This document shows positions 37,511 to 58,885 of a stretch of 64,000 nucleotides of DNA, one piece after another. The notes under the pieces are model-generated. The model did not search any database. It was not told the DNA's origin and saw only the letters and a program-made list of their open reading frames with translations. The stretch is taken from positions 19,273 through 83,272 of the forward strand of contig CAJKQX010000001.1 in assembly GCA_905202125.1 (NCBI GenBank), read 5' to 3'. This DNA comes from an uncultured Prevotella sp. (GTDB taxonomy: Bacteria; Bacteroidota; Bacteroidia; Bacteroidales; Bacteroidaceae). The translations under genes were made by a program, and so were the position numbers. Each line of letters opens with the position of its first letter. Position 1 is the stretch's first letter.

Positions 37511-38617
37511 CTACACCGAGAGGCTCGTATTCAACACATTTTCGTTTGTAGTACTGATACGCAAATGATATTTCCCGTCGTAGCGGATTGTCATCAGACG
37601 TTGAGGATCGGCCACACTGTTGTGCAAAGCAAGAGCCACATGCCCCATTGTCCGACGCAGATTGAGTTCGACACAAGGATGTATCAGGAATCTTTTTCGC
37701 GTATCATCCGCCACTATCATCAAGTCGATACCAAACGGACCGACGTATCTGCCATCAATGAAATATTGCATTCGATGGATGACACCATCACGAATTTTCG
37801 CGATAATCGTGGTATCAACATACCTTGACAATATTTCAAGCTTTTCCCGTTCCGATGCTATAATACTACCGGCGTAAGATCCATTCACCGTTTTGAATAT
37901 TGAAAGGCCCTTATATTCTACCCTCCCATTGGCAGTGGCAATAAACTCCATACCAAAATCTTCCACCTTATCATAATATGGTTCAACCATCAAGCCTCCT
38001 TGACGAGACAATATATTGCGGCACCATCCGATGAGCGGTTGCTCCAAAGTATGCTCTACATAACGAACGCCGCGACCGCTACAACTCCACGGGGCCTTTA
38101 CCACACTTTTTCCATTGGTCTCGATTTCGGAAATGACAGAATCGAGATTGTCAAGATAAACGGCACGACCCACAAACGAACTGTCGAGCGAACAGAGATA
38201 AGGAAGCAAATGTTCGGATGCAAAACGGCGGTTGCTCATCGTGCGAATATTGTCGACACTTGTCTTATCCTGAACCACCTGTACAAAAGTATTATTGGTA
38301 TGGACGAGCTGTCTTGTCAACATCATATCCCAGCCCCAGGGAGATACTTTCAATTGTCTTATGCTATCGGCATTGAGTAAACTGAGATCCGCCAATGTGA
38401 CGAAAACAACATCTGCCGCAAAAGACTTGACATGTCTGACCATCTCAAGTGCCGCCTCGGTATCATCGACCAATACCAAGTCGCCGTCTTCGGCCCAAAG
38501 AGCCGGAAGAAAGCCTAAATCCCTACGGAGATTTCGCGCCGCATGAGGTGGGGTAAACAAACCATCAGTCGAAACCAATGCCAAATCGTGCTCGGGATTG
38601 AATATATGTAATTTCAT
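37511..38617 (-). CDS. ATP-grasp-fold hypothetical protein
   Basis: 368 aa. KAPWSCSGRGV glycine-rich loop. E-L-N-L-R (ExN Mg-binding) motif near the C-terminus. No functional partners nearby. Confidence 0.45.
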   Translation of the reverse strand: MKLHIFNPEHDLALVSTDGLFTPPHAARNLRRDLGFLPALWAEDGDLVLVDDTEAALEMVRHVKSFAADVVFVTLADLSLLNADSIRQLKVSPWGWDMMLTRQLVHTNNTFVQVVQDKTSVDNIRTMSNRRFASEHLLPYLCSLDSSFVGRAVYLDNLDSVISEIETNGKSVVKAPWSCSGRGVRYVEHTLEQPLIGWCRNILSRQGGLMVEPYYDKVEDFGMEFIATANGRVEYKGLSIFKTVNGSYAGSIIASEREKLEILSRYVDTTIIAKIRDGVIHRMQYFIDGRYVGPFGIDLMIVADDTRKRFLIHPCVELNLRRTMGHVALALHNSVADPQRLMTIRYDGKYHLRISTTNENVLNTSLSV

Positions 38618-41561: not shown

Positions 41562-42098
41562 TTGAGAACCGACAAGCAGCTTGTCAATGACATTATGAAG
41601 GGCGACGGTATCGCCATGCGCGAACTGTACGACCGCTATTCGGGATATGCTATGGCCGTGTGCCGGAGATATATCCCGGATATGGACGATGTGAAGGATG
41701 TCATGCAGGAGAGCTTTGTCAAGGTATTTTCTTCTCTCTCCAGGTACGAATATCGTGGCGAGGGTTCGCTCAAGTCGTGGATTTCACGCATTGTCTCCAA
41801 CGAGGCTCTCGACCACATGCGTCGCAACGGTCGTGTGTCTTTTGTAGAAATGATACCCGATTTGCCTGATGAACCCGAGCCGGATATCGAGGATATCAGC
41901 GATGAGACGCTCACCGCCCTTATAGCCCGGCTTCCCGCCGGCTACCGCATGGTGCTCAATATGTATGTCTTTGAGCAGCTGAGCCACAAGGAGATAGCCG
42001 CCCGGCTCGGCATCTCGCCCGCCACATCCGCCTCACAATATTTTCACGCCAAAAAGATGTTGGCCAAAATGATTAACGACTATAAAAAACATAACTGA
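41562..42098 (+). CDS. ECF-type RNA polymerase sigma-70 factor
   Basis: 178 aa. Regions 2 and 4. The start may be an upstream TTG. Confidence 0.85.
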   Translation: MRTDKQLVNDIMKGDGIAMRELYDRYSGYAMAVCRRYIPDMDDVKDVMQESFVKVFSSLSRYEYRGEGSLKSWISRIVSNEALDHMRRNGRVSFVEMIPDLPDEPEPDIEDISDETLTALIARLPAGYRMVLNMYVFEQLSHKEIAARLGISPATSASQYFHAKKMLAKMINDYKKHN

Positions 42099-42099
42099 C

Positions 42100-43308
42100 A
42101 TGAAACAAAGGGACTGGACCAAACAGATGCGCGACAGACTTATCGATTATAAGGCTGACGTACCCGACAATCTGTGGCCGGACATCGAGAATGCCCTGCA
42201 ACGCAAGCGCCACCGCACACTCGTCATGAGACGCTACGCGCTGAGTGCGGCTGCCGTCGTGGCTGCGTTTGTGATTGTCGGTACTGCTTATATGCTCCAT
42301 CGTGGAAACCCGGACGGCTTGACAGCCTCTCATACGGATGTTCAGACAAACCATCCGTCCGCCATCTCTCAGACGGCATCGACCATCGTGGACGCCGACA
42401 AACCGTTCATTGCTGCCTTATCCGCCCCGCGGCATACGGCCCATGTAGCGGCAAGAGATATTGACCCGATCGGCAAGGTTAGTGCTGTCACTGCCGTTGA
42501 GACTCAGACGCAAGGTGTCATTTCCGGCCTTAACGACTCTCATAAGACGGAAGATATCGTTGCCATCGACCCCGCCGACAATCGAAGACCGTCTGCCGAG
42601 CGTGAACATTCCGCCCATAATGCGAATCGAAACGTGAACAGGTCCACACAGATGCCTGTTCATTATCGCGGTGGCAATATCACCATTGAGGCTTATTCGT
42701 CTAACATGATGAGCGGCAATAAGGATATGCAGGGTGCGGGCAACGTTAATCTGATGTCCGACTATGCCATGACGTCCAATATGCTTAAGGCCAAACCGAT
42801 GGGCACACCCGATGTTACTGAGAAAAAGAAACATTATATGCCGCTGACCTTCGGTGTGTCGGTGGGCTATGCCTTGAATGATCGTGTTGCGCTGTCTTCG
42901 GGTTTGGTGTATACACGCACGGTAGCCGATTTCACCAGCATTTCTGTTTCCAAGCGACAAACCGAGCGTCAGACGTTGCACTATGTGGGAATACCGCTCA
43001 ATGTGTATTATCGTGTGTGGAGCACAAAGGGGCTCAAGGTGTATGCCACGGCAGGTGTACAGGCCGATGTCAACGTGAGTGCCTCAAGCAAGAAGGACGG
43101 ACGCAAGAGCGACATCGACACGGACCGCATGCAATGGTCGGTTGGTGCTGCGGCAGGAGTGGAATATGATTTCGTACCGAAATTGGGCGTTTACGTCGAG
43201 CCGGGAGTGAAATACTACATCGACAACGGCAGCAGCATTGATAATGTTTTCAAGGACAAGCCATGCAATTTCAGTTTGCAGATAGGTTTGAGATACAATC
43301 TGAAATAG
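42100..43308 (+). CDS. anti-sigma-like N-terminal domain + TM + low-complexity linker + C-terminal outer-membrane beta-barrel (PorT/OMP_b-brl_2-like) fusion protein
   Basis: 402 aa. It starts 2 nt after the sigma stop. Cytoplasmic N-terminus, one TM (YALSAAAVVAAFVIVGTAYML), a Ser/Thr/Ala/Asn-rich linker, and a C-terminal ~170 aa of alternating-hydrophobic beta strands (VGAAAGVEYDF, LGVYVEPGVKYYI, SLQIGLRYNLK). Confidence 0.5.
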   Translation: MKQRDWTKQMRDRLIDYKADVPDNLWPDIENALQRKRHRTLVMRRYALSAAAVVAAFVIVGTAYMLHRGNPDGLTASHTDVQTNHPSAISQTASTIVDADKPFIAALSAPRHTAHVAARDIDPIGKVSAVTAVETQTQGVISGLNDSHKTEDIVAIDPADNRRPSAEREHSAHNANRNVNRSTQMPVHYRGGNITIEAYSSNMMSGNKDMQGAGNVNLMSDYAMTSNMLKAKPMGTPDVTEKKKHYMPLTFGVSVGYALNDRVALSSGLVYTRTVADFTSISVSKRQTERQTLHYVGIPLNVYYRVWSTKGLKVYATAGVQADVNVSASSKKDGRKSDIDTDRMQWSVGAAAGVEYDFVPKLGVYVEPGVKYYIDNGSSIDNVFKDKPCNFSLQIGLRYNLK

Positions 43309-43341: not shown

Positions 43342-44988
43342 TCATTTGTCCGTCGGACCTTCCAATATATATCGTCCGTCGCTCCATATCTCGGTGAATT
43401 TGCCGATGCTGTGGAGATATTGTCTTACAAGGATGTCCTTCCCGCTCATGTCTTGCGTGTCCAGCAGAAGGTAGGGCAGGCGTCCCGTGTGCTTGTAGGC
43501 CGTGTCGATATATCGATTGTTCATCGTCGCAGTTGTGAAAAGGGTGCTGAACACGGCATACGGTTTGCTGTCGAGCAATGAAATCATCGGTATCGAGAAA
43601 TTGCAAACCATGTAGCTCCCCTCGGGCAACATGGGCTTGAGCGTATGTATCAGTTGGTTGTACATGTCGGCATTTTCTTTGGTCGTGAGTATGCCCTGTG
43701 TCAACTCGCTGTCTATCGTGTAACGGCATTGCAGGCGATTGCCATCTTCCATCATCGGTCGTTTCACGTTGGTGTAAACCATCGCTGCGCACACCATCAC
43801 AAAACCAAGCCTGAGCGACCGTCCCACCGCCGCTTGATATTTCTCTTTTATCCGTTTTATACCTTCTGCCATCATGCCCACGGCCAATGGCAATGTGAGA
43901 TGACAGATGTCCTTGCCATAGAATTCCGGACCGGCATTGCTGCCTATGGGAAAGACGACAGGGATGAACAGTGACAATAAGAACAGCGATGCCGTATCGG
44001 TCCGCATGTCCTTGCACAGGAATACCACGGGCAATGCCGCCAGACATATTCCGACGGTGATATTGGCCGGTGCCTCCCACAGATAGATGTTCACGATGAT
44101 GAGGATGGACAGGGCTGCGTTGGCGACGAAGCGTCTCGCTCCTCGCAGATGGATGTTGCCAAGCGTAATCAGAACTGTCAGCAGTAAGACGGGAGCAATG
44201 CCTTGAATGACGCCCTTGTACAGAGTGTAGGCACTGATGATGATTGTCGGCAGACTGTGGCAGTCGTCCGCGCCGCCCGTTATCCGTGTTATGTCCATGA
44301 CGGTGAGCCGTAGTACGTCCTGCATGTTGCCGGCGTAGACTATGCTAAGGGCCAAAGCCAGTCCGAGAAAGGCTCCCGTGAAGAAAGCGAAACATATCTT
44401 CCGTGTGCCGATGGCCATCAGTCGGCGCAGCGATACGAGCCATATCATCACCGGAAGGGCAAGAAACGTGAGATTGACAATCCTGAACAATATCGCAAAA
44501 CCGGCAAATGCGCCGCTCAACATGATAGCAAAGGCACGGCTGCGGGTCATGCCGTGATGGGCCGCGAGAATGCTCAGGGTGAGCAGAAATATGGAATAGT
44601 CGTTGTAGTTTATCTCTGTGTAACTGCCGAAATGGGCCAGAGTGGCCAGTGTCAGTCCTGCGATGATATGGCGCGGGCGGACATATTGCCGCAGATAAAA
44701 GTATATGACGGTTTGCGAGAGTATTGTCAGTGCGAGGTGCAAGAGGCGGATACCCAAGAATGTTTTTATAGTAAGAGCTTTGCAAATGAGCGATGACAGT
44801 TGATAGGTGAGCAACCATTGACCCAAATAATATGTTGTGTGCGGCTCGTTACTGAAATGCTGATAGCCCGACATATAGATGCCGATGTCGAGAAAAGAGA
44901 AACCTTGAAACATCTGCATGCCTAAATATATCGTGGCAAAGATGATGTAGATGATGAACGCGCGGTGGTCGCTGATAGTCTTGAACAT
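43342..44988 (-). CDS. polytopic membrane protein, candidate glycosyltransferase or polymerase
   Basis: 548 aa. At least 11 predicted TM segments, then a ~150-aa soluble C-terminal domain. Last gene of the deoxy-aminosugar operon. No family assignment. Confidence 0.3.
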   Translation of the reverse strand: MFKTISDHRAFIIYIIFATIYLGMQMFQGFSFLDIGIYMSGYQHFSNEPHTTYYLGQWLLTYQLSSLICKALTIKTFLGIRLLHLALTILSQTVIYFYLRQYVRPRHIIAGLTLATLAHFGSYTEINYNDYSIFLLTLSILAAHHGMTRSRAFAIMLSGAFAGFAILFRIVNLTFLALPVMIWLVSLRRLMAIGTRKICFAFFTGAFLGLALALSIVYAGNMQDVLRLTVMDITRITGGADDCHSLPTIIISAYTLYKGVIQGIAPVLLLTVLITLGNIHLRGARRFVANAALSILIIVNIYLWEAPANITVGICLAALPVVFLCKDMRTDTASLFLLSLFIPVVFPIGSNAGPEFYGKDICHLTLPLAVGMMAEGIKRIKEKYQAAVGRSLRLGFVMVCAAMVYTNVKRPMMEDGNRLQCRYTIDSELTQGILTTKENADMYNQLIHTLKPMLPEGSYMVCNFSIPMISLLDSKPYAVFSTLFTTATMNNRYIDTAYKHTGRLPYLLLDTQDMSGKDILVRQYLHSIGKFTEIWSDGRYILEGPTDK

Positions 44989-45079
44989 ACAGTCTGAATG
45001 GTCTTTTATGATAGTTTGGTCGGGCTGATGGGTTGGTTTTTATGATTTAAACGAGCAGGCAGATAGCGGTGTGTGGGGG

Positions 45080-46003
45080 TTACAGCTCGAACGAACACTT
45101 GGTCGAAGCCCCGCATCCGATGCTCTCCTTGAAGTTGCACAGCCCGTAGTTGGGCACACCGCCTTCGGTAGAAGGCCCGATATCGAGAATGTGTGCTCCC
45201 TTCTTGTTGTAAAAGTCGAATACGTGATAGACCAGACGGTTCATAGGACGCAGGTCGGAGTAGCGACGTATATCGCCCCAGTAGATCACCTGATAAATGT
45301 CTTCGGCCGTCTGAAACACCTGAGCCGCAGCCGCACCCGTGCCTTCGTGACTTAGGATGAAGAAATCGGCTGGAATAAGCCGGGTCGTTTTCATGACATC
45401 TTCGAGCGTCATACGTAGCGGATAACTGTGCTCCTCGCGGTTGCGGCGTATGATGTCGTAAGCCTCGGCCATGCCTTTCGGGTCGTCGGTACCGATATGC
45501 CGGAACTCAAAATCCTCGTTCATGGCCCGCTTGAGATTCTTTTTCGCATTGCGCTCGATTATCTCGTCATAGCGCTCTATGAGGCTTAAGTCGAAATGAT
45601 AGTTTATCTCCACATGGCGCAATGTGGCTCTTCGCGACAGCACGTTGATAGTGTGTGTGGTGAGACGCGGGTCGTACAGCGATGGCGGGAGGGTGATCAC
45701 GATTCTCTTGCCGTGCGTCCGACCATACTCTTTCAGCTCGGCCACGGCCTCGTCAAGATATTCGAGCCTCTGATTTTTTATCGGAGAGAAACCGCCGAAC
45801 GGAGCCGAGAAAGGAGAGAAAAATGCCGTATCCTTCTCGCCGAGTATAATGCCGAATCGCGTTTTCGTGTCTTCGAACAACAGATAACGCACATGAGCAA
45901 CCTTTTGCCGGTTTAGTTCGGCAAATCCGGTTGTATTATATATGTGTGGATGACGTGCCAGACAACCTTTGTATTCCTCTGCGGATACTTCCCTGATATA
46001 CAT
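45080..46003 (-). CDS. FemAB-like / BioF2-like (Acetyltransf_6) GNAT-fold acyltransferase
   Basis: 307 aa. Weak resemblance to FemAB-family / Acetyltransf_6 proteins found in polysaccharide loci. The call rests mainly on size, context and fold-level similarity. Confidence 0.35.
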   Translation of the reverse strand: MYIREVSAEEYKGCLARHPHIYNTTGFAELNRQKVAHVRYLLFEDTKTRFGIILGEKDTAFFSPFSAPFGGFSPIKNQRLEYLDEAVAELKEYGRTHGKRIVITLPPSLYDPRLTTHTINVLSRRATLRHVEINYHFDLSLIERYDEIIERNAKKNLKRAMNEDFEFRHIGTDDPKGMAEAYDIIRRNREEHSYPLRMTLEDVMKTTRLIPADFFILSHEGTGAAAAQVFQTAEDIYQVIYWGDIRRYSDLRPMNRLVYHVFDFYNKKGAHILDIGPSTEGGVPNYGLCNFKESIGCGASTKCSFEL

Positions 46004-46006
46004 TTT

Positions 46007-47107
46007 CTATTTGAAATTATTGAGCAGTTCCACCACGGTGCGGCGTTCCTCCTCTTTAAGGATGGGGCTCACCGGGATGCTCAGTTCCTCTCGGTGTATC
46101 TTCTCGCTTATAGGCAACGACAGACGACAGTATTGTTTGTAGCATTCCTGTTTGTGTGGCGGGATAGGGTAATGGATGTCCGTCTGCACACCGTTGTCGG
46201 CGAGATATTGTTTCAGTCGGTCTCTTTCTTCGCACAATATCGGGAAAATATGAAAGACGTTGTTTTCCAGATAGTCCATTGTCGGCACTTTTATGCGCTC
46301 GTTGCGAATGTTGCGAATGTAGTGAAGGGCATTGTCTCGGCGCATGCCGTTGTCCCTTTCAAGATACGGGAGTTTGGCATTGAGTATGGCGGCCTGCACC
46401 TCGTCTATGCGACTGTTTATCCCCACATGCGTGAAAACGTATTTCTTCGCGCTGCCATAGTTGGCTATTCCCCTCACCAGACGTGCCAATTCGTCATCAT
46501 TGGTGGTCACTGCACCGGCATCACCAAGTGCTCCGAGATTTTTTGTGGGATAAAAACTGTGGCCCGCCGCATCGCCTATCGCGCCTGTCATCGTGTCCTT
46601 GTATCGGCAGCCATGAGCCTGCGCGTTGTCCTCTATCAGTTTCAGACCATGCCGCCGGCATATCTCCCCGATGTTGTCCGAGTAGGCGCATTTGCCGTAA
46701 AGATGCACTATCATGATGCCTTTTGTGCGCCGTGTGATAGCCTCTTCTATGCGCCGGTCGTCTATCTGCAGCGTCTTTATGTCAGGCTCCACAAATACCG
46801 GATGCAGCTTGTTCCATGTCACGGCCAGTATCGAGGCGATGTATGTGTTGGCCGGAACGATGATTTCATCCCCTTCGCTCATCACTCCCATCTCGATGTA
46901 CGCCCTCAGTATGAGCGTCAAGGCATCCAGACCGTTGCCGCAAGCCACGCAATGAGAGCTCCCGATGTAGTCGGCATAAGCACTCTCGAAGGCTGCGGTC
47001 TCCTCTCCGCGGAGATACCATCCGCTGTCGCATACGCGGCGCATGGCTTCGTGAATGTCGTCGGCGTATCTTGATGTGAGTTGGGATAGATCGGTGAGAT
47101 ATATCAT
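46007..47107 (-). CDS. DegT/DnrJ/EryC1/StrS-family PLP sugar aminotransferase (FdtB/QdtB-like)
   Basis: 366 aa. Conserved [17 protein letters not shown] lysine region. Overlaps fdtA by 4 nt. Confidence 0.8.
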
Positions 47108-47514
47108 TTGATGTATTCGAGATAATCTTCGTAATGGCGGATGTAGTCGTTCTCGTCAAATTCTTGGGATGCCAAAACAAGGCATACGGCACCCGACGAG
47201 AAATCGTCGAGTGTCCGCCATACGCCCGTTTCTATAATCAGGCCTTCGTAAGGACGATTCAGAAGAAACGTTTTTTTCTCCGTGCTGTTGTCGAGAGTGA
47301 CCGTGAACGATCCGCTCACGGCTATTATTATCTCGCGACACTGCTTGTGGGCATGTCCGCCGCGGCTCTCTCCGGCCGGCACATCATACAACCAGTACAC
47401 CCGTCGGATATCGAACGGTATGTTGTCGAGACTCTGTGCCACGGTGAGATTGCCTCGTGGGTCCGTAATCTTGGACAGACCGATTATTCTTCCTTCCGAA
47501 TCATCCATCGCCAT
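47104..47514 (-). CDS. WxcM-like cupin, dTDP-4-keto-6-deoxyglucose 3,4-ketoisomerase (FdtA/QdtA-like)
   Basis: 136 aa. Motifs DPRGNL...[20 protein letters not shown] characteristic of FdtA-type isomerases. Confidence 0.7.
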
Positions 47515-47515
47515 A

Positions 47516-48676
47516 TCATTTAATTACCGTTGCGGCCAGACGTTTGGCCTTGTCCCTCAGTGCGTCGGTGCTGCTGTCGGTATCGCCGTAGCACAGCACC
47601 ACACCCATGCGGCGGTTGACGTGTTGCTGCTGTTTGCCGAAGATGCGGATGCGAGTGTGATCCTCTTTCAGCGCGTCGAGCAGATTGTATTGCGGTTCGT
47701 GGTCAGCCTCTTCTTTGGCCAGTACCACTGCGCTTGCACCTGCATGTTCGAGGTGAATGCCCGGAATGGGTAGTCCCATAACGGTGCGGAAATGAAGCTC
47801 AAACTCGTTGAGGTTGAGCGTATGACCCAATGTCACCATGCCCGTGTCGTGTGGACGGGGAGACAACTCGGAGAATATCACGCCCTTGTCGCGGCTCAGG
47901 AAGAACTCCACTCCCCATATGCCTGCACCCGTGAGGGCTGCTGTCACGGCGCCTGCCATAGCCTGTGCCTCTTTCAGGTCGCTCTCGCTGATGGCGAATG
48001 GTTGCCAGCTCTCGCGATAGTCGCCGCTGATCTGTACGTGACCGATGGGCGGACAGAAGAGTGTCGGACCATCTTTCTGTGTCACGGTGAGCAGTGTGAA
48101 CTCGCTGTCAAAGTGAATGAATTCCTCGATGATGATTTCCTTCACGTCTCCGCGGCTGCCTTCCATCGCATCGTTGAAGGCCTTCTCGAGGTCCTCCTCT
48201 TTCTTCACGATGCTCTGACCGTGGCCCGATGACGACATGAGAGGTTTGATAACGCACGGGAAACCAATCTCTTTGGAGTGCTCGCGGAGCTGCTCCAACG
48301 TTGTGGCATAGAAATATTTGGCAGTCTTGAGTCCCAACTCTTTGGCAGCAAGGTCGCGTATGGCCTTACGGTTCATGGTGTAGTTCACGGCTTTGGCGCT
48401 CGGAACCACCTGTATGCCCTGCTTCTCGAAGTCGAAGAGACGCTCGGTACGGATGGCCTCAATCTCCGGGACGATGATGTCGGGCTGATGCTTACGTACC
48501 ACCTCTTCCAGTTTGTCACCATCGAGCATGCTGAATACCTCGCATTCGTCAGCTACCTGCATGGCTGGCGCACCGGCATATCTGTCGCATGCTATGACGT
48601 ATTGTCCGGCGCGTTTGGCCGCGATTACGAATTCCTTGCCGAGCTCTCCGGAACCCAATAATAGTATTTTCTTCAT
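47516..48676 (-). CDS. purT: PurT-type ATP-grasp formate-dependent formyltransferase (phosphoribosylglycinamide formyltransferase 2 homologue)
   Basis: 386 aa. Full-length collinear match to PurT: [54 protein letters not shown]. The stop lies 1 nt from the fdtA start. Confidence 0.8.
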
Positions 48677-48686
48677 ATTATGATTA

Positions 48687-48980
48687 TTATATTGTTTGTT
48701 TTATCATTTGCCATTCGGGTGTGACGGCCAGTTTTCTTATCCCGCTCGTGATGATGCCGTCCGCCTCGTCTGTGGTCAGTCCGTGTCTATCGGCAATCTT
48801 CTGCGTTGAGAGTCTGTCCGTTCCCGGGAGTCCGAAAAATTCCTTCACCATCGTCTCCTGTTCCGCCGGGAGCAGTCGGAGGATGTGTTCCATGTAGTGG
48901 GCTGTCTTCTTGTCTACGCTGTCCGGATTGGTTCCCAACCGTGATAAGAACGCTTTCAGCTCCTCGGAGATTATGTCCAT
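48687..48980 (-). CDS. small sigma-70 region-4-like HTH protein
   Basis: 97 aa. [28 protein letters not shown] resembles sigma region 4.2. It sits between rmlB and purT. Confidence 0.35.
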
Positions 48981-48981
48981 C

Positions 48982-50130
48982 TTATCTTCCGGCGTACATT
49001 TGTTCGTAATATTTCTGATAGTCGCCGCTTGTCACCTCTTTTATCCATTGCTGGTTCTCGAGGTTCCAGTGAATTGTCTTTACTATGCCGTCGGCAAACT
49101 TGGTCTCGGGATACCATCCCAACTCGTTCTTTATCTTTGTGGGATCGATGGCGTAGCGCTGGTCATGACCCAGTCTGTCGGCCACGAAGGTGATGAGATC
49201 CTCGTTTATCCAGTCGATGGCAATGTCTCCGTTGGCGTCGGTCACCTGTTTCTTGAGCACCTTTCTCATCTCCTTGTTTTCAGCCATGATGTCGTGGATG
49301 GTCTTTATGGTGAGCTTCACGATGTCGATATTCTTCATCTCGTTGTGTCCGCCCACGTTGTACACCTGTCCGTCGCGACCCTCTCGCACCACCATGTCGA
49401 TGGCCTTGCAGTGATCCTCTACGTACAGCCAGTCGCGCACGTTCTCACCCTTGCCGTACACCGGCAGCTTCTTGCCTTCGAGAATATTGTTTATGATCAG
49501 CGGAATGAGTTTCTCGGGAAAATGATACGGACCGTAGTTGTTGGAGCATCGGGTGATGGTCACGGGCATGTGGTAAGTGTCATGATAAGCCATCACGATG
49601 AGGTCGGCGCTCGTTTTGGATGCGCTGTACGGGCTATGCGGGCACAGCGGAGTCTCTTCGGTGAAATAGCCAGTCTCGCCCAGCGATCCGTACACCTCGT
49701 CGGTGGCCACCTGATGGAATCTCTTGCCCGCCTTCCATGTGGGATATCCGGTGTCGTCCTTGCCTGTCACCCACGCCCGACGGGCCGCGTCGAGCAGGTT
49801 TTGGGTGCCGAGGATGTTGACCGAGAGAAACAGTTGCGGGTCCTCGATGCTGCGGTCCACGTGGCTTTCGGCTGCGAAATTCACCACATAGTCGATATCG
49901 TTCTCTTCGAATATCTTGTCTGCCAGGGCACGGTCTCTGATGTCGCCGCGAATGAAGAAGCAACGCTTGTCGTCGATGTCGTCCTTTATTGTTCCCAGAT
50001 TGCCTGCGTATGTGAGCAAGTCAAGGATGATAATCTTGATATCTTCGTCTTTGTATTTCTTGTAGAGAAGATATTTGATGAAATTAGCTCCGATAAAACC
50101 GGCTGCTCCGGTCACTAAGTACGTTTTCAT
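48982..50130 (-). CDS. rfbB: dTDP-glucose 4,6-dehydratase
   Basis: 382 aa. GAAGFIGANF Rossmann motif, YSASK catalytic motif, extended SDR. Confidence 0.93.
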   Translation of the reverse strand: MKTYLVTGAAGFIGANFIKYLLYKKYKDEDIKIIILDLLTYAGNLGTIKDDIDDKRCFFIRGDIRDRALADKIFEENDIDYVVNFAAESHVDRSIEDPQLFLSVNILGTQNLLDAARRAWVTGKDDTGYPTWKAGKRFHQVATDEVYGSLGETGYFTEETPLCPHSPYSASKTSADLIVMAYHDTYHMPVTITRCSNNYGPYHFPEKLIPLIINNILEGKKLPVYGKGENVRDWLYVEDHCKAIDMVVREGRDGQVYNVGGHNEMKNIDIVKLTIKTIHDIMAENKEMRKVLKKQVTDANGDIAIDWINEDLITFVADRLGHDQRYAIDPTKIKNELGWYPETKFADGIVKTIHWNLENQQWIKEVTSGDYQKYYEQMYAGR

Positions 50131-50208
50131 ATTGTTTGTTTTTTATAAGTTTTCGATTAATCCCCTGTGTGGGCTTTTATGAGCTATATGATTTTTATAT
50201 TACACATA

Positions 50209-50718
50209 TTATAAATTATCCTTGCGCGGGTCGTGCAGCGTGACCACCTCGCAATCGCTCATCTTGCTGCCGTCGATGGTTAGTCGGACGATGGTACGGT
50301 CCTTGTGCCATCCTTGCAATCCGGCGGCTCCGGGGTTGATGTGGAGCAGTCCGAGCGACTTGTCGTATTGCACTTTGAGTATGTGTGAGTGTCCGCTGAC
50401 AAACAGTTGGGGTGGCGAGGCATATATCCGTCGGCGTATGCTCGGGTCGTAGTTGCCCGGATAACCGCCGATATGCTTCATGAGCACATCCACGTCCTCG
50501 CACTTGAATCTCAGTATTTCAGGATACATCAGTCTCAGGTCGCCTCCGTCGCAGTTGCCGCAGACGGCTCTGAACGTGCGGAATGCTGCCAGACGTTCGG
50601 CCAGTTCGGTCGAGCAGATATCCCCTGCATGCCATATCTCGTCGCATTCTTCGAAATATTTCAGATAACGGTCGTCCCAGTATGAGTGCGTGTCGCTTAT
50701 TATGCCTATTCTTTTCAT
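50209..50718 (-). CDS. metallophosphoesterase (YfcE-like MPP family)
   Basis: 169 aa. ISDTHS ... GDI ... GNCD ... GHSH motifs. Confidence 0.7.
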   Translation of the reverse strand: MKRIGIISDTHSYWDDRYLKYFEECDEIWHAGDICSTELAERLAAFRTFRAVCGNCDGGDLRLMYPEILRFKCEDVDVLMKHIGGYPGNYDPSIRRRIYASPPQLFVSGHSHILKVQYDKSLGLLHINPGAAGLQGWHKDRTIVRLTIDGSKMSDCEVVTLHDPRKDNL

Positions 50719-50855
50719 TGTGTCGGGCTCGCCCCGGATGCGTATTGAAATGTGTGATATGTCACGTCAAATTAGCGTGTCAATTCCGAGGTGCAGATTG
50801 CATTGCAAAGATACTGCAATTATTTAGATTGTGCAAAAATACGATGAAAATAACC

Positions 50856-50883
50856 CCAAGAGATAGTTGCGTATTCTTAATTA
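50856..50883. repeat. 28-bp element, inverted partner of 59037-59064, with shared promoter-like flank
   Basis: GAGATAGTTGCGTATTCTTAATTATCTC is the exact reverse complement of 59037-59064. A shared AAATGTTAATTTTG (TAnnTTTG-like) motif lies 15 nt upstream of each copy. Confidence 0.8.
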
Positions 50884-51113
50884 TCTCACAGTATTCGGGT
50901 GCCAAAATTAACATTTCGCTCCAAATTTCATAAATGTCAAAAATGAAATCGTCCAATCGGATGTAGGGCTGAAGGCCCGAAAAGCGCTCAGCCCGGGGCA
51001 AAGCGAAACGAAGTGGAGCGACGCACCGGGCTTGAATGAATTGAGAAGATTGCGCGTTGAAGGCGCAAAAGCGTTAATAACAACATGTCACAGTCATTGA
51101 GCAAAATCTATGT

Positions 51114-51745: not shown

Positions 51746-53097
51746 CTATGTTGTTTTTTTGAATTTTTTCATATATACAGCCATTATCCACGCTGCGACG
51801 ATGGCTGCAATGGCATCGGATGCCGGCATGGCTCCCCACACGCCGTCCACTCCGAAGAAGTGGGGCAGAATGGCGAGCAACGGCAAGAGAAACAGCAGTT
51901 GGCGCGACAGCGAGAGGAAAATGCTTATCTTCGCTTTGCCGATACTCTGAAAGAAATTGGTGATGACCATCTGATAGCCTACCAGAGGGAATGTCACCAT
52001 GATGATCCTTATGCCTTTTACCGACAGCGAGATGAGTGTTTCGTCTGTGGTGAAGAGCCGTGCACATACGTCAGGGATAGCCATTGCGATGACGAATCCC
52101 GTGGTCATGATGGCTGTGGCGGCTATCATCGCCAGTTTGAGTACGCGCATCAGGCGGTCGAAATGTTGTGCACCGTAATTATAGCCCGCTATGGGCTGCA
52201 TGCCCTGATTGACTCCCATGTTTATCATCACGAAAATGAATGCCACCCTGTTGGCTATGCCGAAAGCACCCACGGCGAGGTCGCCGCTGTACTCCACGAG
52301 ACTGTTGTTGATGAAGATCACGATGATGCAGGCGCACACGTTCATCGAGAAGGGTGACAGGCCGATGGAAATAATGTTCCTCACGATGTTGTCATCCAAT
52401 CGGTATATGCCCCGTTTGAGATGCAGCGGTTCGCGCTTGTCGCTCATGATACGCAGTTGCCACACGAGTGCCAATGTCTGCGACAGTATGGTGGCGTAGG
52501 CTGCTCCGCGTATGCCGAGGTCAAGCCCCCAGATGAAAAGGGGGTCGAGTACGGAGTTCATCACCACCGTAAAGATGGTCATATACATGGCGTTGCGCGG
52601 TTTGCCCACCGCCCTGAGTATGGCGTTCATGCCAAAGAACATGTGGGTTATCACGTTGCCCGTTAGTATTATGACCATATAGTCGCGGGCGTAAGGGATG
52701 GTCTGGTCGCTCGCACCGAAAAATCTGAGTATCTCATCGAGAAACATCAGAGGAATGAATCCCACGCACAGACCGATGATGATGTTCAGGGTCATACAGT
52801 TGCCCAGGATGTGTTGTGCCGTTTTATAGTCTTTCTGACCCAGTTTGACCGACAGATATGTGGATGCGCCCACACCTATCGCTGCGCCGAATGCAGCCGT
52901 GAGGTTCATGAACGGGAACGTGATGGCCAGGCCGGATATGGCCATCGGGCCTACTCCTTGTCCTATAAATATGCTATCCACCATGTTGTAGAGCGATGCC
53001 GCGGTCATGGCGATGATGGCCGGTATGGCGTATTGCATGAGCAGACGGCCTACCGGTTTGGTTCCTAATTCGAGTGTTGCTTGTCTGTTATCCATAA
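51746..53097 (-). CDS. MATE-family efflux transporter
   Basis: 12 TM segments. Start chosen at MDNRQATLELGTKPVGRLLMQYAIPAI; the ORF is open to 53173. Confidence 0.85.
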
Positions 53098-53207
53098 TGT
53101 TCTGATTCGTTGCAAAGTTACTCCAAATAGTAAACATGGCAAAGCGACGGCTGTCCTTTTTTTTGTATCCCATCGCCTTGACATGACAGGACGGTCAGCC
53201 TCGGCCA

Positions 53208-56464: not shown

Positions 56465-58885
56465 ATGAAATCAAAGATATTTTATATAATGGCTTTGTGC
56501 CTTTTCGCGTTTATGCAGACTGTAAACGCACAGAAATTGGATGAGGTTGTTTGGTTCAATTATTCAAAACCGGTAGAGCAATTAGTTACAAAAGAAGGGA
56601 AAGAACCTATCCGTGTATTGATTTTCAACCGAAGTGCGGCTATTGGCAACGACGCAGGCACACGTCCGGGTTTGGGGCGTACAAAAGCATTCTTGACTAA
56701 TGGCGGCGGCTATGGAATGCAAGGTGTTCTGTCGGATTTCGGAACTCGCTTCTATATCACAAGATCGAAAGATTATGATTCGGACAAGGATGTTTACAAT
56801 ATCCATTCTTACCTTACCAATAAGGTGGTGGTAGGCTTGGGCAACTGCTTGTCTTATTCATGGAGCATCTATATGGACAGAGGTGATAGGAAATCAGACG
56901 GCGGTGACAGATCTTACCCTAATTGGTATTTTGAAAAAACAAATACTGAAAATTCGGGAAATACTGATAATTGCGGATATTATTTGAAGAATATGGAAAC
57001 ATTTGACGACATGAAGCAACCATATCTTTATTATAAAAACCACACAACAAGTACCGGAAATGATATTAACACAGTCCAAGTAACTGCCGACGGGTCTTTG
57101 AAAGACGAGTGGTGTTTCATCACCGAGGAAGATTACCGTAAGGCCATGACCGGTTTCTCAAGCAATTTCTATATCGAGGCCTCAGGCTTGATTCACGATG
57201 CGAGTTTCAACAGATTCAATGATTATCAGACTGAATGGAAACCATCTCTCGCCGAGGACGGATATACAGTTTTCCCGATGAAAGAACCATTGGGTGATGG
57301 CCAAACATTGCCGGAAGGTAAAGCTCCGATAGATTATTACGGTTACGAGATTCCTGCAACTACTTATAATCTTCCTTTGAACGAGACTTATCTCAATGCT
57401 CATATCGAAGATGACACTTATGAAGCGATGAAGAATCTTCTGACATACAAGACTCACGTGATGGGTGCATCACAGATGGACCGAGATGTTACAGTAGCCG
57501 TCGAAGCGTCCACCAGTGACGATATGACATTGCCGGGTGATAGTTATTTATTTATGGAAAAATATGGCAAGGACTATTGTGCCGGTATTTATGCCGACGG
57601 TAAATATGAGCAGACTATCAAAGGTGTGCCCGCTGGTACTTATCGCATTACGTGTACGGCAGTAAACACGGGTACAAACGAGTTTAACGGTTCGCTGTTG
57701 GTCAATGGACACAAGGTGAATCTGCCGTTGCTGGCCGAAAAGGACAGTGAATTCCAGAAAATAAAGAAAGAGGTGATAGACGATGCGAAAGCTCGTCGTG
57801 CTCTGCACATCGATGATTATTATTATCAGGGCCTTGATGTATTGGCCGCATCCCGACTGCTTGAGAAAAACAAGGAGAGATTCACCGTAAACTATTACAT
57901 CACAGTGGAAGAAGGTGAAGATATCACCATCGGATTCTCCAATAACAACAAGGATGACAAGGATGCCCTCAACCATCCTGTATTCGCCGACAATTTTCGA
58001 ATGTATCTCATGCAAATGGATTTCCAGGCCTACATCTCTGCCAACAATGTCACTGCTGCGAACTTGGACAAGTTCGACTACAAGCAACCTGTGGATCTCT
58101 ATGTACGCCGCGCATTCACTGAAGGCTGGAATCCCATCGTGTTGCCGTATGACATCACTCTCGGCGGTGCACAATCCGGTATCGGAGAAGGTGTCAATCT
58201 GAGCAAACTCATCGGTATCAATCCTGATGATCCGAAAGAGGTCCTCTTTGAATTTACCAATCAGCTTAAGGCCGGCGAGTGCGGACTGATCTACATCCCC
58301 AAGAAGACTGATACAACACCATCTTCTGAAAAGGCCCTGAAAATTCTGAATGCACCGTTTAACTTGGGTGCTAATGAGGCGGCACATACTGTCGATAAGA
58401 CCATCCACGGTCCTTACTACTGCATCAACGGTGCATTGAGATCGGGCGATGAGAATGGATATTATTATACAGAAGACGCTGATACCGAGGTGGACAAAAC
58501 TTACGAGACAGGTGATAACAATGAATACAAACTCCATTTCCACGGATATTATTACAAACCCGAAAACACAGCATGGCCGGCCGGTTCGTATGTCATGGAA
58601 AATGGCACAATGTATCAGCTCCAAAGCGATTGGGGCAGGGTGTATGGCACAATGTGGTATCTGACCGAACCGGAAAGCGCACTGCAATCGGCCCCCAAAG
58701 TGTTCAACATCAACGGTGTGGTGGACGGAGACGTGACCTCTATCAGTGGTGTCGGCGTGGAAAGCGAGACATATAGTAACAAGGTGTACAATCTCAACGG
58801 ACAGTATGTGGGTACAGCAGCCGACATCGACCGTCTGCCAAAGGGAATGTATATCACCAACGGCAAGAAGATGGTCGTGAAATAA
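56465..58885 (+). CDS. large secreted hypothetical protein with T9SS C-terminal sorting domain
   Basis: 806 aa. Signal peptide. C-terminal ~80 aa (KVYNLNGQYVG...LPKGMYITNGKKMVVK) matches the Por secretion sorting domain. No catalytic motifs recognised. Confidence 0.6.
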   Translation: MKSKIFYIMALCLFAFMQTVNAQKLDEVVWFNYSKPVEQLVTKEGKEPIRVLIFNRSAAIGNDAGTRPGLGRTKAFLTNGGGYGMQGVLSDFGTRFYITRSKDYDSDKDVYNIHSYLTNKVVVGLGNCLSYSWSIYMDRGDRKSDGGDRSYPNWYFEKTNTENSGNTDNCGYYLKNMETFDDMKQPYLYYKNHTTSTGNDINTVQVTADGSLKDEWCFITEEDYRKAMTGFSSNFYIEASGLIHDASFNRFNDYQTEWKPSLAEDGYTVFPMKEPLGDGQTLPEGKAPIDYYGYEIPATTYNLPLNETYLNAHIEDDTYEAMKNLLTYKTHVMGASQMDRDVTVAVEASTSDDMTLPGDSYLFMEKYGKDYCAGIYADGKYEQTIKGVPAGTYRITCTAVNTGTNEFNGSLLVNGHKVNLPLLAEKDSEFQKIKKEVIDDAKARRALHIDDYYYQGLDVLAASRLLEKNKERFTVNYYITVEEGEDITIGFSNNNKDDKDALNHPVFADNFRMYLMQMDFQAYISANNVTAANLDKFDYKQPVDLYVRRAFTEGWNPIVLPYDITLGGAQSGIGEGVNLSKLIGINPDDPKEVLFEFTNQLKAGECGLIYIPKKTDTTPSSEKALKILNAPFNLGANEAAHTVDKTIHGPYYCINGALRSGDENGYYYTEDADTEVDKTYETGDNNEYKLHFHGYYYKPENTAWPAGSYVMENGTMYQLQSDWGRVYGTMWYLTEPESALQSAPKVFNINGVVDGDVTSISGVGVESETYSNKVYNLNGQYVGTAADIDRLPKGMYITNGKKMVVK

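Follow-up and report, generated by a model that had tools for sequence, protein, structure and literature searches.

A Prevotella gene cassette proposed to make an acylated, probably aminoacylated, 3-amino-3,6-dideoxy sugar, with purT as a likely passenger

Genes for a deoxy-aminosugar and a purine gene, purT, lie in tandem in the genome of an uncultured gut Prevotella, and the question is what such a unit makes and whether PurT takes part in making it. The stretch of DNA analysed, 64,000 nucleotides long, is called the window below. The first-pass annotation described seven packed minus-strand genes, all of which are present at their positions as open reading frames (Table 1). The spacing of 1-4 nt given for them holds at most junctions: by coordinates, rmlB is separated by 1 nt from a 97-aa ORF, which is followed after 10 nt by purT and after 1 nt more by fdtA; fdtA overlaps the DegT aminotransferase gene by 4 nt, and 3 nt lie between the latter and the gene for a 307-aa protein. 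It fails at the 10-nt gap and at the 91 nt that precede the terminal gene, for a 548-aa protein. An eighth co-oriented gene in the same span, initially unlisted, encodes a YfcE-type metallophosphoesterase 78 nt upstream of rmlB. Most related loci have it upstream of rmlB too, with 76-86% identity. A motif scan between 43.3 and 51 kb found TAnnTTTG on the minus strand only at 50806, 50834 and 50903, and these three matches are a candidate promoter of the whole eight-gene unit; sigma-70 and terminator scans did no better than chance.

Table 1. Features of the cassette region, in window coordinates
Feature	Position	Strand	Basis
Candidate promoter: three TAnnTTTG (Bacteroidetes -7 motif) matches	50806-50910	-	Upstream of first gene
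YfcE-type metallophosphoesterase, 169 aa, first co-oriented gene	50209-50718	-	PF12850 E 8e-29; TIGR00040 62 bits
RmlB, dTDP-glucose 4,6-dehydratase	48982-50130	-	TIGR01181 437.5 bits, cutoff 365.1; PF16363 E 1e-89
97-aa ORF, family without assignment	48687-48980	-	Conserved ORF between rmlB and purT
PurT, formate-dependent GAR transformylase	47516-48676	-	NF006766 536 bits, cutoff 339; PF21244 PurT_C
FdtA/QdtA-type isomerase	47104-47514	-	PF05523 E 6e-52
DegT PLP-dependent sugar 3-aminotransferase, FdtB/QdtB/WlaRG type	46007-47107	-	PF01041 E 1e-102
Fem-like double-GNAT transferase, 307 aa	45080-46003	-	AlphaFold fold, family PF13480
GT-C fold membrane glycosyltransferase, 548 aa, C-terminal periplasmic domain	43342-44988	-	

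The sugar-nucleotide core is well defined by its solved relatives, and the view that RmlB, FdtA/QdtA and FdtB/QdtB form a module for dTDP-3-amino-3,6-dideoxyhexose is borne out by them. The closest to the isomerase are FdtA (2pa7, E 7.5e-31) and QdtA (4zu7), and its H54-A-H56 aligns with the H-A-H of FdtA. The aminotransferase is best matched by WlaRG (5u1z, E 3e-118), 7n63 and QdtB (3frk, E 7e-101), and has an intact SFYPxK motif with K189. RmlB would produce dTDP-4-keto-6-deoxyglucose and the isomerase would relocate its keto group to C3, after which the aminotransferase would turn the product into dTDP-3-amino-3,6-dideoxyhexose. Among the window ORFs covered by family scans, neither rmlA nor purN turned up, nor a formyltransferase (Formyl_trans_N), an LbH acetyltransferase or Wzx/Wzy. 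For these ORFs the first reading was thus correct that rmlA and Wzx/Wzy are missing, as are a classical FdtC/QdtC and a folate-dependent formyltransferase; the remaining scanned ORFs are housekeeping genes, a setting in keeping with its view that this is not an O-antigen locus.

The first-pass annotation had given PurT a part in the last step, in which it would N-formylate the dTDP-3-amino sugar, or an aminoacyl group on it, with formate and ATP. The 1-nt distance from purT to fdtA speaks for this model, and so do the lack in the window of both a folate-dependent formyltransferase and an LbH acetyltransferase and the recurrence of the arrangement, as FdtA, a Fem-like gene and DegT lie downstream of purT in about three quarters (some 40 of about 52) of the Prevotellaceae-like PurT-anchored metagenome loci. 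The protein itself, however, looks like an ordinary PurT. It scores as an equivalog (NF006766), matches the E. coli enzyme (1kj8) with E 9e-101, and has E71, D277, K348, R355 and R356 in place of the GAR-binding E82, D286, K355, R362 and R363 of the latter. These five residues are invariant in 123 PurT proteins, 93 of them cassette-adjacent and 30 cassette-free. The conservation of PurT is similar to that of the housekeeping neighbours and higher than that of the sugar genes. Neighbourhood comparison, which had been suggested as a check on whether purT always adjoins fdtA and fdtB, indicates that each occurs without the other: PurT orthologues at 73-88% identity, that of Bacteroides (73%) among them, have no sugar genes around them, and the cassette is found without PurT in loci L030 (beside dnaA), L015, L033, L042 and L045, in loci outside Prevotellaceae, and in Prevotella intermedia, where the locus tags of RmlB and FdtA are adjacent, with no purT between them. 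Because the GAR-binding residues are invariant, the conservation is like that of housekeeping genes, and orthologues stand without the cassette, PurT is most likely an ordinary housekeeping purine gene, a passenger of the operon with no part in the sugar chemistry. This is close to the situation that the formylation model had itself named as contrary to it, and we regard sugar formylation by PurT as highly improbable.

The 97-aa ORF is probably likewise outside the sugar chemistry. It had been labelled sigma-region-4-like, a label without support from Pfam (no match even at E<=10), NCBIfam or any meaningful PDB sequence match. Many loci of gut Prevotellaceae have the ORF, at 41-47% identity, in the interval from rmlB to purT; it is missing from the oral-taxon loci L170-L173, and none of the P. 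intermedia locus tags corresponds to it.

From gene order, what constantly accompanies FdtA and the aminotransferase appears to be a Fem-like enzyme and not PurT, a further point against formylation. In genome loci anchored on the GNAT gene, the Fem-like gene is flanked by FdtA, and usually by DegT too. Whether it lies between fdtA and the aminotransferase gene or behind them, the slot is filled either by the window type or by a second class, of 312 aa, which PF13480 matches as well; the two are highly divergent but homologous (hhalign 81%, E 1e-5), and have in common the motifs DxGxSTE...NxGLxx[F/H]K. Outside Prevotellaceae, the FdtA/DegT/Fem-like trio is found inside polysaccharide loci with Wzx, GT2 and GT4 genes. 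On this comparison RmlB, FdtA, the DegT aminotransferase and the Fem-like transferase appear to be a conserved cassette within a housekeeping-embedded operon. About 15 of 80 loci, in Muribaculaceae and a few Prevotella, have the Fem-like gene without FdtA or DegT within 10 kb, so its acceptor need not always be the 3-amino-3,6-dideoxy sugar. The homologues in Muribaculaceae and some Prevotella have only housekeeping genes for neighbours, for example those for dUTPase, Sua5 and a B3_4 protein, and known Fem and MprF relatives use peptidoglycan precursors and lipids, both of which would suit an enzyme acting on such a non-sugar acceptor, its adjacency to fdtA and the aminotransferase gene being synteny without a shared pathway. 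Occupation of the same slot by two so divergent classes and recurrence of the trio in polysaccharide loci of distant Bacteroidota argue against this, as does the lack of any other N-acyltransferase for the pathway among the window ORFs, and we consider it quite improbable.

What group would the Fem-like enzyme transfer? Pfam gives no match for the copy in the window; the original label, Fem/GNAT-like, is upheld indirectly, by PF13480 (Acetyltransf_6) in 32 of 40 relatives and by the Fem-type double-GNAT fold of an AlphaFold model (pLDDT 96). In Foldseek the best matches of the model are Sba18/Sbb17 (E 2e-14, TM 0.72-0.78), FemX, FemA and the synthase domain of MprF. Each of the best 24 is either a transferase that depends on aminoacyl-tRNA or a domain of that family, and their E-values and TM-scores are better than those of acyl-CoA enzymes. 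Residues K34, Y241, W242, F291 and K292 are invariant. K292 lies in a C-terminal F-K motif with Y241 51 residues upstream, and FemX has K305 and Y254; because a profile of the K292-bearing family (A1) finds no PDB sequence, the correspondence of K292 with K305 is by position and motif, not by residue-level structural alignment. A catalytic role has been described for FemX K305 and for the W284/F328/K329 set of DhpH-C (PMC12945691). We propose that the Fem-like enzyme N-acylates the 3-amino group of the dTDP-sugar, and probably aminoacylates it; we infer its acceptor, its donor (aminoacyl-tRNA or acyl-CoA), the amino acid and the glycan that finally takes up the sugar. A possible, though doubtful, alternative is an ordinary N-acetyl or other acyl-CoA-derived 3-amino-3,6-dideoxyhexose, with the Fem-like protein a tandem GNAT in place of FdtC/QdtC and the sugar destined for O-antigen, capsule or O-glycan. 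Family members are publicly annotated as 'GNAT family N-acetyltransferase', PF13480 is a GNAT family, acyl-CoA tandem GNATs (clavulanate tandem GNAT, VipF, GlcN N-acetyltransferase) do appear further down among the Foldseek matches, with E 1e-9 to 1e-7, and the polysaccharide loci that hold the trio outside Prevotellaceae are typical Wzx/GT loci. The identity of the best 24 fold matches and the invariant C-terminal Lys in the F-K motif, as in Fem enzymes, point the other way, and so does the presence, in a Prevotella species with a syntenic locus, of an N-alanyl amino-dideoxyhexose of unknown origin.

That species is P. intermedia, in which type IX secretion cargo is amide-linked to an N-alanyl amino-dideoxyhexose, as N-alanyl-dHex-HexNAc. 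The biosynthesis of this linking sugar has been stated as unknown. The masses of Ala (71.037), an amino-dideoxyhexose residue (145.074) and HexNAc (203.079) add up to 419.190, and the reported value is 419.198. Consecutive locus tags in the proteome table are BWX39_04720 (MatE), 04715 (cytidylate kinase), 04710 (phosphoesterase, the counterpart of the YfcE-type gene), 04705 (RmlB), 04700 (FdtA), 04695 (GNAT, 36.0 kDa) and 04690 (aminotransferase, 41.7 kDa); all of these products were detected. Flanking order and sizes agree with the window, for example 43.9 kDa for this RmlB and 43.85 kDa for that of the window, and annotation, size and synteny point to BWX39_04695 as one of the Fem-like classes. 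P. intermedia has, in a polysaccharide locus, another such pair of a GNAT and an aminotransferase, BWX39_05755 and 05750. Whether the linking sugars of P. gingivalis and T. forsythia carry Ser or Gly is decided by VimA, whose annotation is that of a putative N-acetyltransferase; P. intermedia has neither VimA nor VimE. The route had been called undescribed for sugar nucleotides, which is right in part: VimA, FemX, whose substrate is UDP-MurNAc-pentapeptide, and Orf11/Sba18, which aminoacylates an amino sugar, are precedents that count against it.

The 548-aa terminal protein, which the first reading took for a transferase or polymerase, is a glycosyltransferase, of GT-C fold. Homologues carry PF13231. 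The Arn pathway, too, has both an aminotransferase of DegT type and a GT-C transferase, and a sugar with a free alpha-amino group would bring in positive charge, so that a cationic aminoacyl sugar could be passed to undecaprenyl phosphate and on, by the periplasmic GT-C protein, to lipid A, LPS core or another envelope glycan, as an ArnT-like charge modification rather than a type IX anchor. We think this unlikely: about three quarters of the related cassettes lack the GT-C gene, which therefore cannot define their core function; the window scans detected neither an ArnC-like GT2 nor a flippase or deacylase; and the acceptor cannot be read from a GT-C fold. By its distribution the GT-C protein appears to be an accessory member of the cassette, and in some lineages may serve as an accessory periplasmic transferase acting on a lipid-linked intermediate.

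Most likely, then, the operon makes a 3-amino-3,6-dideoxy sugar acylated by a Fem-type enzyme, probably with an amino acid. The Fem-like double GNAT would stand in for the usual FdtC/QdtC acetyltransferase and acylate the 3-amine, most probably with an amino acid from aminoacyl-tRNA, while PurT and the 97-aa ORF would be co-transcribed as passengers. The resulting dTDP-3-(aminoacyl)amino-3,6-dideoxyhexose would go into a cell-surface glycan. Our first candidate for this is the linking sugar, an N-alanyl amino-dideoxyhexose, through which type IX secretion cargo is amide-bonded to LPS in Prevotella. Supply of the sugar nucleotide for this cargo linkage is our leading hypothesis. To the reading as a whole, an aminoacyl-aminosugar cassette with a passenger PurT and a candidate role in the type IX linking sugar, we give a probability of roughly 55%. 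What the analysis shows directly is the gene identities, the folds, the synteny pattern and the conservation of the PurT active site. If the reading is true, the N-alanyl sugar by which Prevotella anchors its type IX secreted proteins could come from this pathway.

Eight genes of the minus strand, all in the same orientation, occupy positions 43342-50718 of the window (see the table of features). From rmlB to the gene of the 307-aa protein the spacing is 1, 10, 1, -4 and 3 nt; 78 nt follow the phosphoesterase gene, and 91 nt separate the 307-aa gene from that of the polytopic membrane protein. On the minus strand between 43.3 and 51 kb, the Bacteroidetes -7 promoter motif TAnnTTTG occurs three times, each time upstream of the phosphoesterase gene, an arrangement that makes it plausible, as far as sequence goes, that the whole unit is read as a single long transcript; scans for sigma-70 promoters and terminators gave no signal above chance. 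The remainder of the window is of housekeeping type (carA, glmS, ligA, dapA, valS, pyrG, yidC and others), and scans of the whole 64 kb (1-64000) found neither tRNA genes nor Rfam families at the gathering threshold.

Features of the eight-gene unit and of its surroundings (window positions)
Feature	Position	Strand	Assignment
YfcE-type metallophosphoesterase	50209-50718	-	PF12850
RmlB	48982-50130	-	TIGR01181, 437.5 bits, above cutoff (365.1)
97-aa ORF	48687-48980	-	without family
PurT	47516-48676	-	NF006766, 536 bits vs 339; ATP-grasp and PurT_C
FdtA-family cupin	47104-47514	-	PF05523
DegT aminotransferase	46007-47107	-	PF01041
307-aa protein	45080-46003	-	window copy without Pfam match of its own
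548-aa polytopic membrane protein	43342-44988	-	window copy without Pfam match of its own
TAnnTTTG sites (three)	50806-50910	-	Bacteroidetes -7 promoter motif
MatE	51746-53173
ECF sigma factor (178 aa) and adjoining 402-aa gene	41562-43308	+
368-aa ORF	37511-38617	-	no Pfam match at E<=1e-4
806-aa ORF	56465-58885	+	no Pfam match at E<=1e-4
266-aa ORF	675-1475	+	no Pfam match at E<=1e-4

The ECF sigma factor gene and its 402-aa neighbor converge on the end of the operon; the pair is kept in same-species contigs, where counterparts of the 402-aa gene have Pfam domains of outer membrane β-barrels. Within the operon, the 97-aa ORF between rmlB and purT had been read at first as a sigma-region-4-like protein. 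This was not confirmed, as the ORF has no match in Pfam (even at E<=10), NCBIfam or PDB. It recurs with 41-47% identity in many loci of gut Prevotellaceae and with 25-36% in some, is missing from the oral-taxon loci L170-L173, and P. intermedia lists no locus tag for it.

Related loci came from a genome scan anchored on the 307-aa family (L010-L089) and from a metagenome scan anchored on PurT (L090-L169), and the eight window proteins were mapped onto the loci of both scans for identity and presence. Identity across Prevotellaceae is 76-92% for the phosphoesterase, RmlB and PurT, and the other proteins are much more divergent (FdtA, 46-76%; aminotransferase, 50-70%; 307-aa protein, 41-58%; membrane protein, 40-56%).

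Three of the genes make up an aminosugar module. RmlB satisfies its equivalog model and has the extended SDR fold (PF16363, E 1e-89). The FdtA-like protein contains a WxcM-like cupin domain (E 6e-52) with the catalytic His-x-His pair kept, H54-A-H56 being aligned to H-A-H in FdtA (PDB structure: 2pa7); it matches FdtA (E 7.5e-31) and QdtA (4zu7, E 2.5e-27) with similar scores, and the gluco (QdtA) or galacto (FdtA) configuration of the product cannot be called from such similarity. The aminotransferase (PF01041, E 1e-102) reaches no NCBIfam equivalog cutoff; its best PDB matches are the 3-aminotransferases 5u1z, 7n63 and QdtB 3frk, and the PLP lysine, K189, is found within the kept SFYPxK motif. 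On the logic of the known pathways, RmlB, the 3,4-ketoisomerase and the 3-aminotransferase would together produce dTDP-3-amino-3,6-dideoxyhexose. HMM scores, catalytic motifs and solved relatives thus bear out a module of the RmlB, FdtA/QdtA and FdtB/QdtB type, as first proposed. The slot upstream of purT is occupied in Prevotellaceae by one of two very different RmlB alleles: identity to the window copy is 81-92% for most loci and 47-49% for eight (L014, L016, L018, L021, L038, L073, L123 and L128), a pattern suggestive of one allele having replaced the other at a constant position. In a metagenome assembly of the same species (L002:932-2031), two ORFs, of 210 and 156 aa, stand in place of an intact aminotransferase gene, owing to a frameshift or an assembly error.

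The same three enzyme families open the known Fdt/Qdt pathways to dTDP-Fuc3NAc and dTDP-Qui3NAc (Aneurinibacillus and Thermoanaerobacterium; WlaRA/WlaRG in Campylobacter). There, the end step is performed by the left-handed β-helix (LbH) proteins FdtC/QdtC or by a folate-dependent formyltransferase, and the genes belong to an S-layer or O-antigen cluster, whereas the window locus lies among housekeeping genes and has the 307-aa Fem-like protein instead. The ORFs scanned in the window include no rmlA, purN, formyltransferase, LbH acetyltransferase or Wzx/Wzy. The first-pass annotation was therefore right about the absence of rmlA and Wzx/Wzy and of FdtC or a folate-dependent formyltransferase at the locus, and a hidden FdtC or formyltransferase nearby is rejected for the ORFs scanned.

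The same annotation had proposed N-formylation of the dTDP-3-amino sugar by PurT. The protein scores 535.9 bits with NF006766 (cutoff 339) and 496 bits with TIGR01142, slightly below the cutoff of 502, has the complete domain order (PF22660, pre-ATP-grasp; PF02222, ATP-grasp; PF21244, PurT_C), and can be aligned over its full length with E. coli PurT (E 9e-101). The GAR-binding residues of the latter, which we take from the structures of Thoden et al. to be E82, D286, K355, R362 and R363, agree with the 1kj8 sequence. Their window counterparts, E71, D277, K348, R355 and R356, are identical, and all five are invariant both in the 93 PurTs followed by the FdtA cassette (FdtA, the aminotransferase and the Fem-like gene) and in the 30 cassette-free PurTs, those with at least 3 kb of downstream sequence without a cassette. 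By identity to the window copy, cassette-free PurTs interleave with the rest (L094, 88%; L118, 82%; L124/125, 79%; L131/132, 76%), and a cassette-free Bacteroides orthologue (73%) is named 'formate-dependent phosphoribosylglycinamide formyltransferase [Bacteroides]'. The reverse, a cassette lacking PurT, is seen in L030, a complete MAG locus where it follows dnaA, as well as in L015, L033, L042 and L045, in Imperialibacter, Saccharicrinis and Carboxylicivirga, and in other Bacteroidales. Given the conserved GAR site, the orthologues without cassette and the cassettes without PurT, a role of PurT as sugar formylase, tempting as the inference was, is rejected: purT here is a housekeeping purine gene, and its product is, by its sequence features, a putative formate-dependent GAR transformylase, a passenger in the operon. 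This comes close to the outcome that the first-pass annotation had itself named as refuting its PurT proposal.

The constant acylating partner of FdtA and the aminotransferase is a Fem-like enzyme, with the activity predicted largely from structure. The AlphaFold model of the 307-aa protein (pLDDT 96) has a double GNAT fold, in line with the initial Fem/GNAT-like reading. Among solved structures, the best Foldseek matches are Sba18/Sbb17 in complex with streptothrisamine, an amino sugar compound (E 2e-14, TM 0.72-0.78), and other top matches are FemX, FemA and the aminoacyl-phosphatidylglycerol synthase domains of MprF (E 2e-14 to 1e-10 over the top matches). All of these are aminoacyl-tRNA-dependent, and acyl-CoA-using tandem GNATs rank below them. 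In sequence searches, PF13480 (Acetyltransf_6) is matched by 32 of 40 family members (best E 5.9e-8), the window copy not being among them, and PF02388 (FemAB) by one of 40, at E 0.046, and not by the window protein. A PDB profile search with the Fem-like family returned no sequence at E<=10; therefore, there is no residue-level alignment with FemX, and residue correspondence is positional only.

With this limit, five residues are invariant in the 307-aa family, K34, Y241, W242, F291 and K292, of which K34, Y241, F291 and K292 are close in position, and in position only, to K36, Y254, F304 and K305 of FemX from Weissella viridescens. The spacing from Y241 to K292, 51 residues, equals that from Y254 to K305, a correspondence by position and motif, and PDB titles list FemX K36 and Y254 as mutated residues. 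K305 is the catalytic lysine of FemX, and the related requirement in DhpH-C is for W284, F328 and K329 (PMC12945691). The double-GNAT architecture is common to the 307-aa protein and FemX/FemABX (Foldseek E 1e-12 to 1e-13), with 13-15% identity and without the FemA coiled-coil insertion. FemX_Wv transfers alanine from Ala-tRNA to a soluble nucleotide-linked acceptor, UDP-MurNAc-pentapeptide; the acceptor is a peptide lysine for FemX/FemABX, as against the sugar amine presumed for the 307-aa protein. The closest solved structures, Orf11/Sba18/Sbb17 of the BD-12/glycylthricin pathway (15% identity), form an amide between the amino acid of an aminoacyl-tRNA (Gly-tRNA) and the amino-sugar amine of streptothrisamine. 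Theirs is an actinomycete antibiotic route with a free streptothrisamine scaffold as acceptor, whereas a dTDP-sugar is proposed for the window protein.

In PurT-anchored loci without a detectable 307-aa homologue, the slot between fdtA and the aminotransferase gene contains a 312-aa protein that matches PF13480 (E 8e-10); this class includes a protein of Prevotella sp. oral taxon 376. The 307-aa and 312-aa classes are remotely related (hhalign 81%, E 1e-5), with common motifs (SPFSAPFGG / SHxGLTYGG and DxGxSTE...NxGLxx[F/H]K-E) and a common invariant lysine (K292 / K295). Possibly, the class of Fem-like enzyme decides which amino acid or which epimer of the acceptor is used.

Outside Prevotellaceae, the trio is found with a tandem FdtA duplicate within Wzx/GT2/GT4 polysaccharide loci; in L079, L083-L085 and L088, two tandem FdtA-family genes precede the Fem-like gene. 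In about 15 loci, mostly from Muribaculaceae, only housekeeping genes surround the Fem-like gene, which is the main internal caveat. A formyltransferase-methyltransferase fusion follows the Fem-like gene inside a Wzx/GT locus of a distant member of Bacteroidales (L083:11854-13554) and was seen there only. Among variable extras of the cassette are a GT-C gene and a membrane O-acyltransferase: Acyl_transf_3 or MBOAT genes lie between purT and fdtA in many loci (e.g., L020:7330-8397, L098:9209-10300, L015:7147-8592), and in L107:11546-13099 Acyl_transf_3 is fused to FdtA in a single 517-aa ORF. The presence of such genes suggests that in some lineages the sugar is O-acylated as well. A gene resembling that of the type IX secretion component PorE (PD40 β-propeller and OmpA, faint TPR match) accompanies the cassette, at a distance of up to about 10 kb, in 30 related loci, upstream in some and downstream in others (e.g., L020:12966-15254, L170:13657-15816); the window has no PorE-like homologue, and the proximity may be regional synteny only. 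Prevotella-type loci also occur on 'cleanbin' and other contigs labelled Akkermansia, Oscillibacter, Lachnospiraceae, Flexilinea, Alistipes, Barnesiella or Staphylococcus (L019, L031, L034, L039, L046, L056, L063, L072, L078 and L087); the core genes are 73-86% identical to those of the window, which suggests mis-binning.

The model of the 548-aa protein (pLDDT 89) has a GT-C membrane fold. Many homologues carry PF13231 and one is annotated GT87, and D34, in the FLDIG motif of the first loop (loop topology being that of the model), is nearly invariant. Taken together, these features point to a periplasm-facing transferase, predicted to use a polyprenyl-phosphate-linked donor. Of the initial description as 'transferase or polymerase', the former part stands, and a Wzy-type polymerase is ruled out by the GT-C fold. 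The gene is present in only about one quarter of cassettes and is therefore accessory. A GT-C protein and a DegT aminotransferase are also the only Arn-type components present; the two systems differ in nucleotide and sugar, not every cassette has the GT-C gene, and the ORFs scanned in the window include no ArnA-type Formyl_trans_N, ArnC GT2, ArnD deformylase/polysaccharide deacetylase or ArnE/F flippase.

In Prevotella species, proteases, adhesins and enzymes that degrade glycans are fixed to the cell surface by way of the type IX secretion system. The anchor, or linking sugar, of P. intermedia is an N-alanyl amino-dideoxyhexose whose biosynthesis Ye et al. stated to be unknown, and WbpB, WbpD, VimA and VimE were reported absent from this species. 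The sum of Ala (71.037), an amino-dideoxyhexose residue (145.074) and HexNAc (203.079) is 419.190, compared to 419.198 reported; the two remaining hydroxyls drawn by Ye et al. are as compatible with a 2- or 4-amino isomer as with a 3-amino-3,6-dideoxyhexose. In the P. intermedia ATCC 25611 proteome table from the same group (PMC10897501 supplement), the cassette is listed under consecutive locus tags, every product having been detected and assigned to a compartment.

Consecutive locus tags at the cassette of P. intermedia ATCC 25611 (PMC10897501)
Locus tag	Annotation	Mass	Compartment
BWX39_04720	MepA/MatE		inner membrane
BWX39_04715	cytidylate kinase
BWX39_04710	phosphoesterase	19.6 kDa	cytoplasmic
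BWX39_04705	dTDP-glucose 4,6-dehydratase	43.9 kDa	cytoplasmic
BWX39_04700	FdtA domain protein	15.6 kDa	cytoplasmic
BWX39_04695	GNAT family N-acetyltransferase	36.0 kDa	cytoplasmic
BWX39_04690	aminotransferase	41.7 kDa	cytoplasmic

The order is that of the window (MatE, cytidylate kinase, phosphoesterase, RmlB, ..., FdtA, ...), and the window masses of 19.4, 43.9, 15.5, 35.5 and 41.6 kDa match the P. intermedia counterparts. Nothing lies between RmlB and FdtA, hence there is neither PurT nor the 97-aa ORF at this place; purN is present in the proteome table and the string purT is absent from it. The cassette is thus a candidate for the linking-sugar pathway of Prevotella. P. intermedia has a second GNAT-aminotransferase pair, BWX39_05755 and BWX39_05750, which is an alternative candidate for the linking-sugar genes in place of the cassette.

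Porphyromonas gingivalis and Tannerella forsythia rely on the Wbp/Vim genes (VimA, VimE, VimF, WbpA/B/D/E), whose product is likewise an amino sugar with an N-linked amino acid, the free amine of which takes the C-terminus of the cargo. In both species the choice of Ser or Gly on the linking sugar is made by VimA, annotated only as a putative N-acetyltransferase, and this serves as the precedent in function for the role proposed here; a literature search found no statement of its protein family. The Wbp/Vim scaffold is a UDP-2,3-diamino uronic acid, as opposed to the dTDP-3-amino-3,6-dideoxyhexose proposed here, and no CE4 deacetylase, WbpB-type oxidoreductase, WbpD LbH acetyltransferase or VimE equivalent was found among the window ORFs scanned. 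The cassette can only be a proposed functional analogue of Wbp/Vim. The literature search found no later paper assigning the Prevotella linking-sugar pathway and no described pathway to N-alanyl deoxy-aminosugars.

Most likely, the cassette product is an N-acylated, probably N-aminoacylated, dTDP-3-amino-3,6-dideoxyhexose. A tentative extension, to which we give about one chance in three, is that RmlB and the cassette are the missing linking-sugar route of Prevotellaceae. The Fem-type enzyme would take alanine, or another amino acid depending on the Fem-like class, from aminoacyl-tRNA and place it on the 3-amino group of dTDP-3-amino-3,6-dideoxyhexose; in LPS, the free α-amine of that residue would be the nucleophile for the PorU sortase as it attaches secreted proteins. 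Such an activity could, beyond this case, account for N-aminoacyl deoxy-aminosugars of O-antigens, as other Bacteroidota have the trio within polysaccharide loci.

The finding extends known kinds, namely Fdt/Qdt pathways and Fem-type transferases, and adds no new category. If the linking-sugar reading is true, the cassette would offer the first example of a deoxysugar nucleotide aminoacylated from tRNA, and a second, independently evolved answer to the Wbp/Vim task of Porphyromonas; if the Fem-like enzyme does use aminoacyl-tRNA on a dTDP-sugar, amide formation that depends on tRNA, known from peptidoglycan, lipids and antibiotics, would reach into nucleotide-sugar metabolism. For Prevotella, a short, conserved and expressed gene set plausibly makes a sugar of the linking type, and a question explicitly left open becomes testable.
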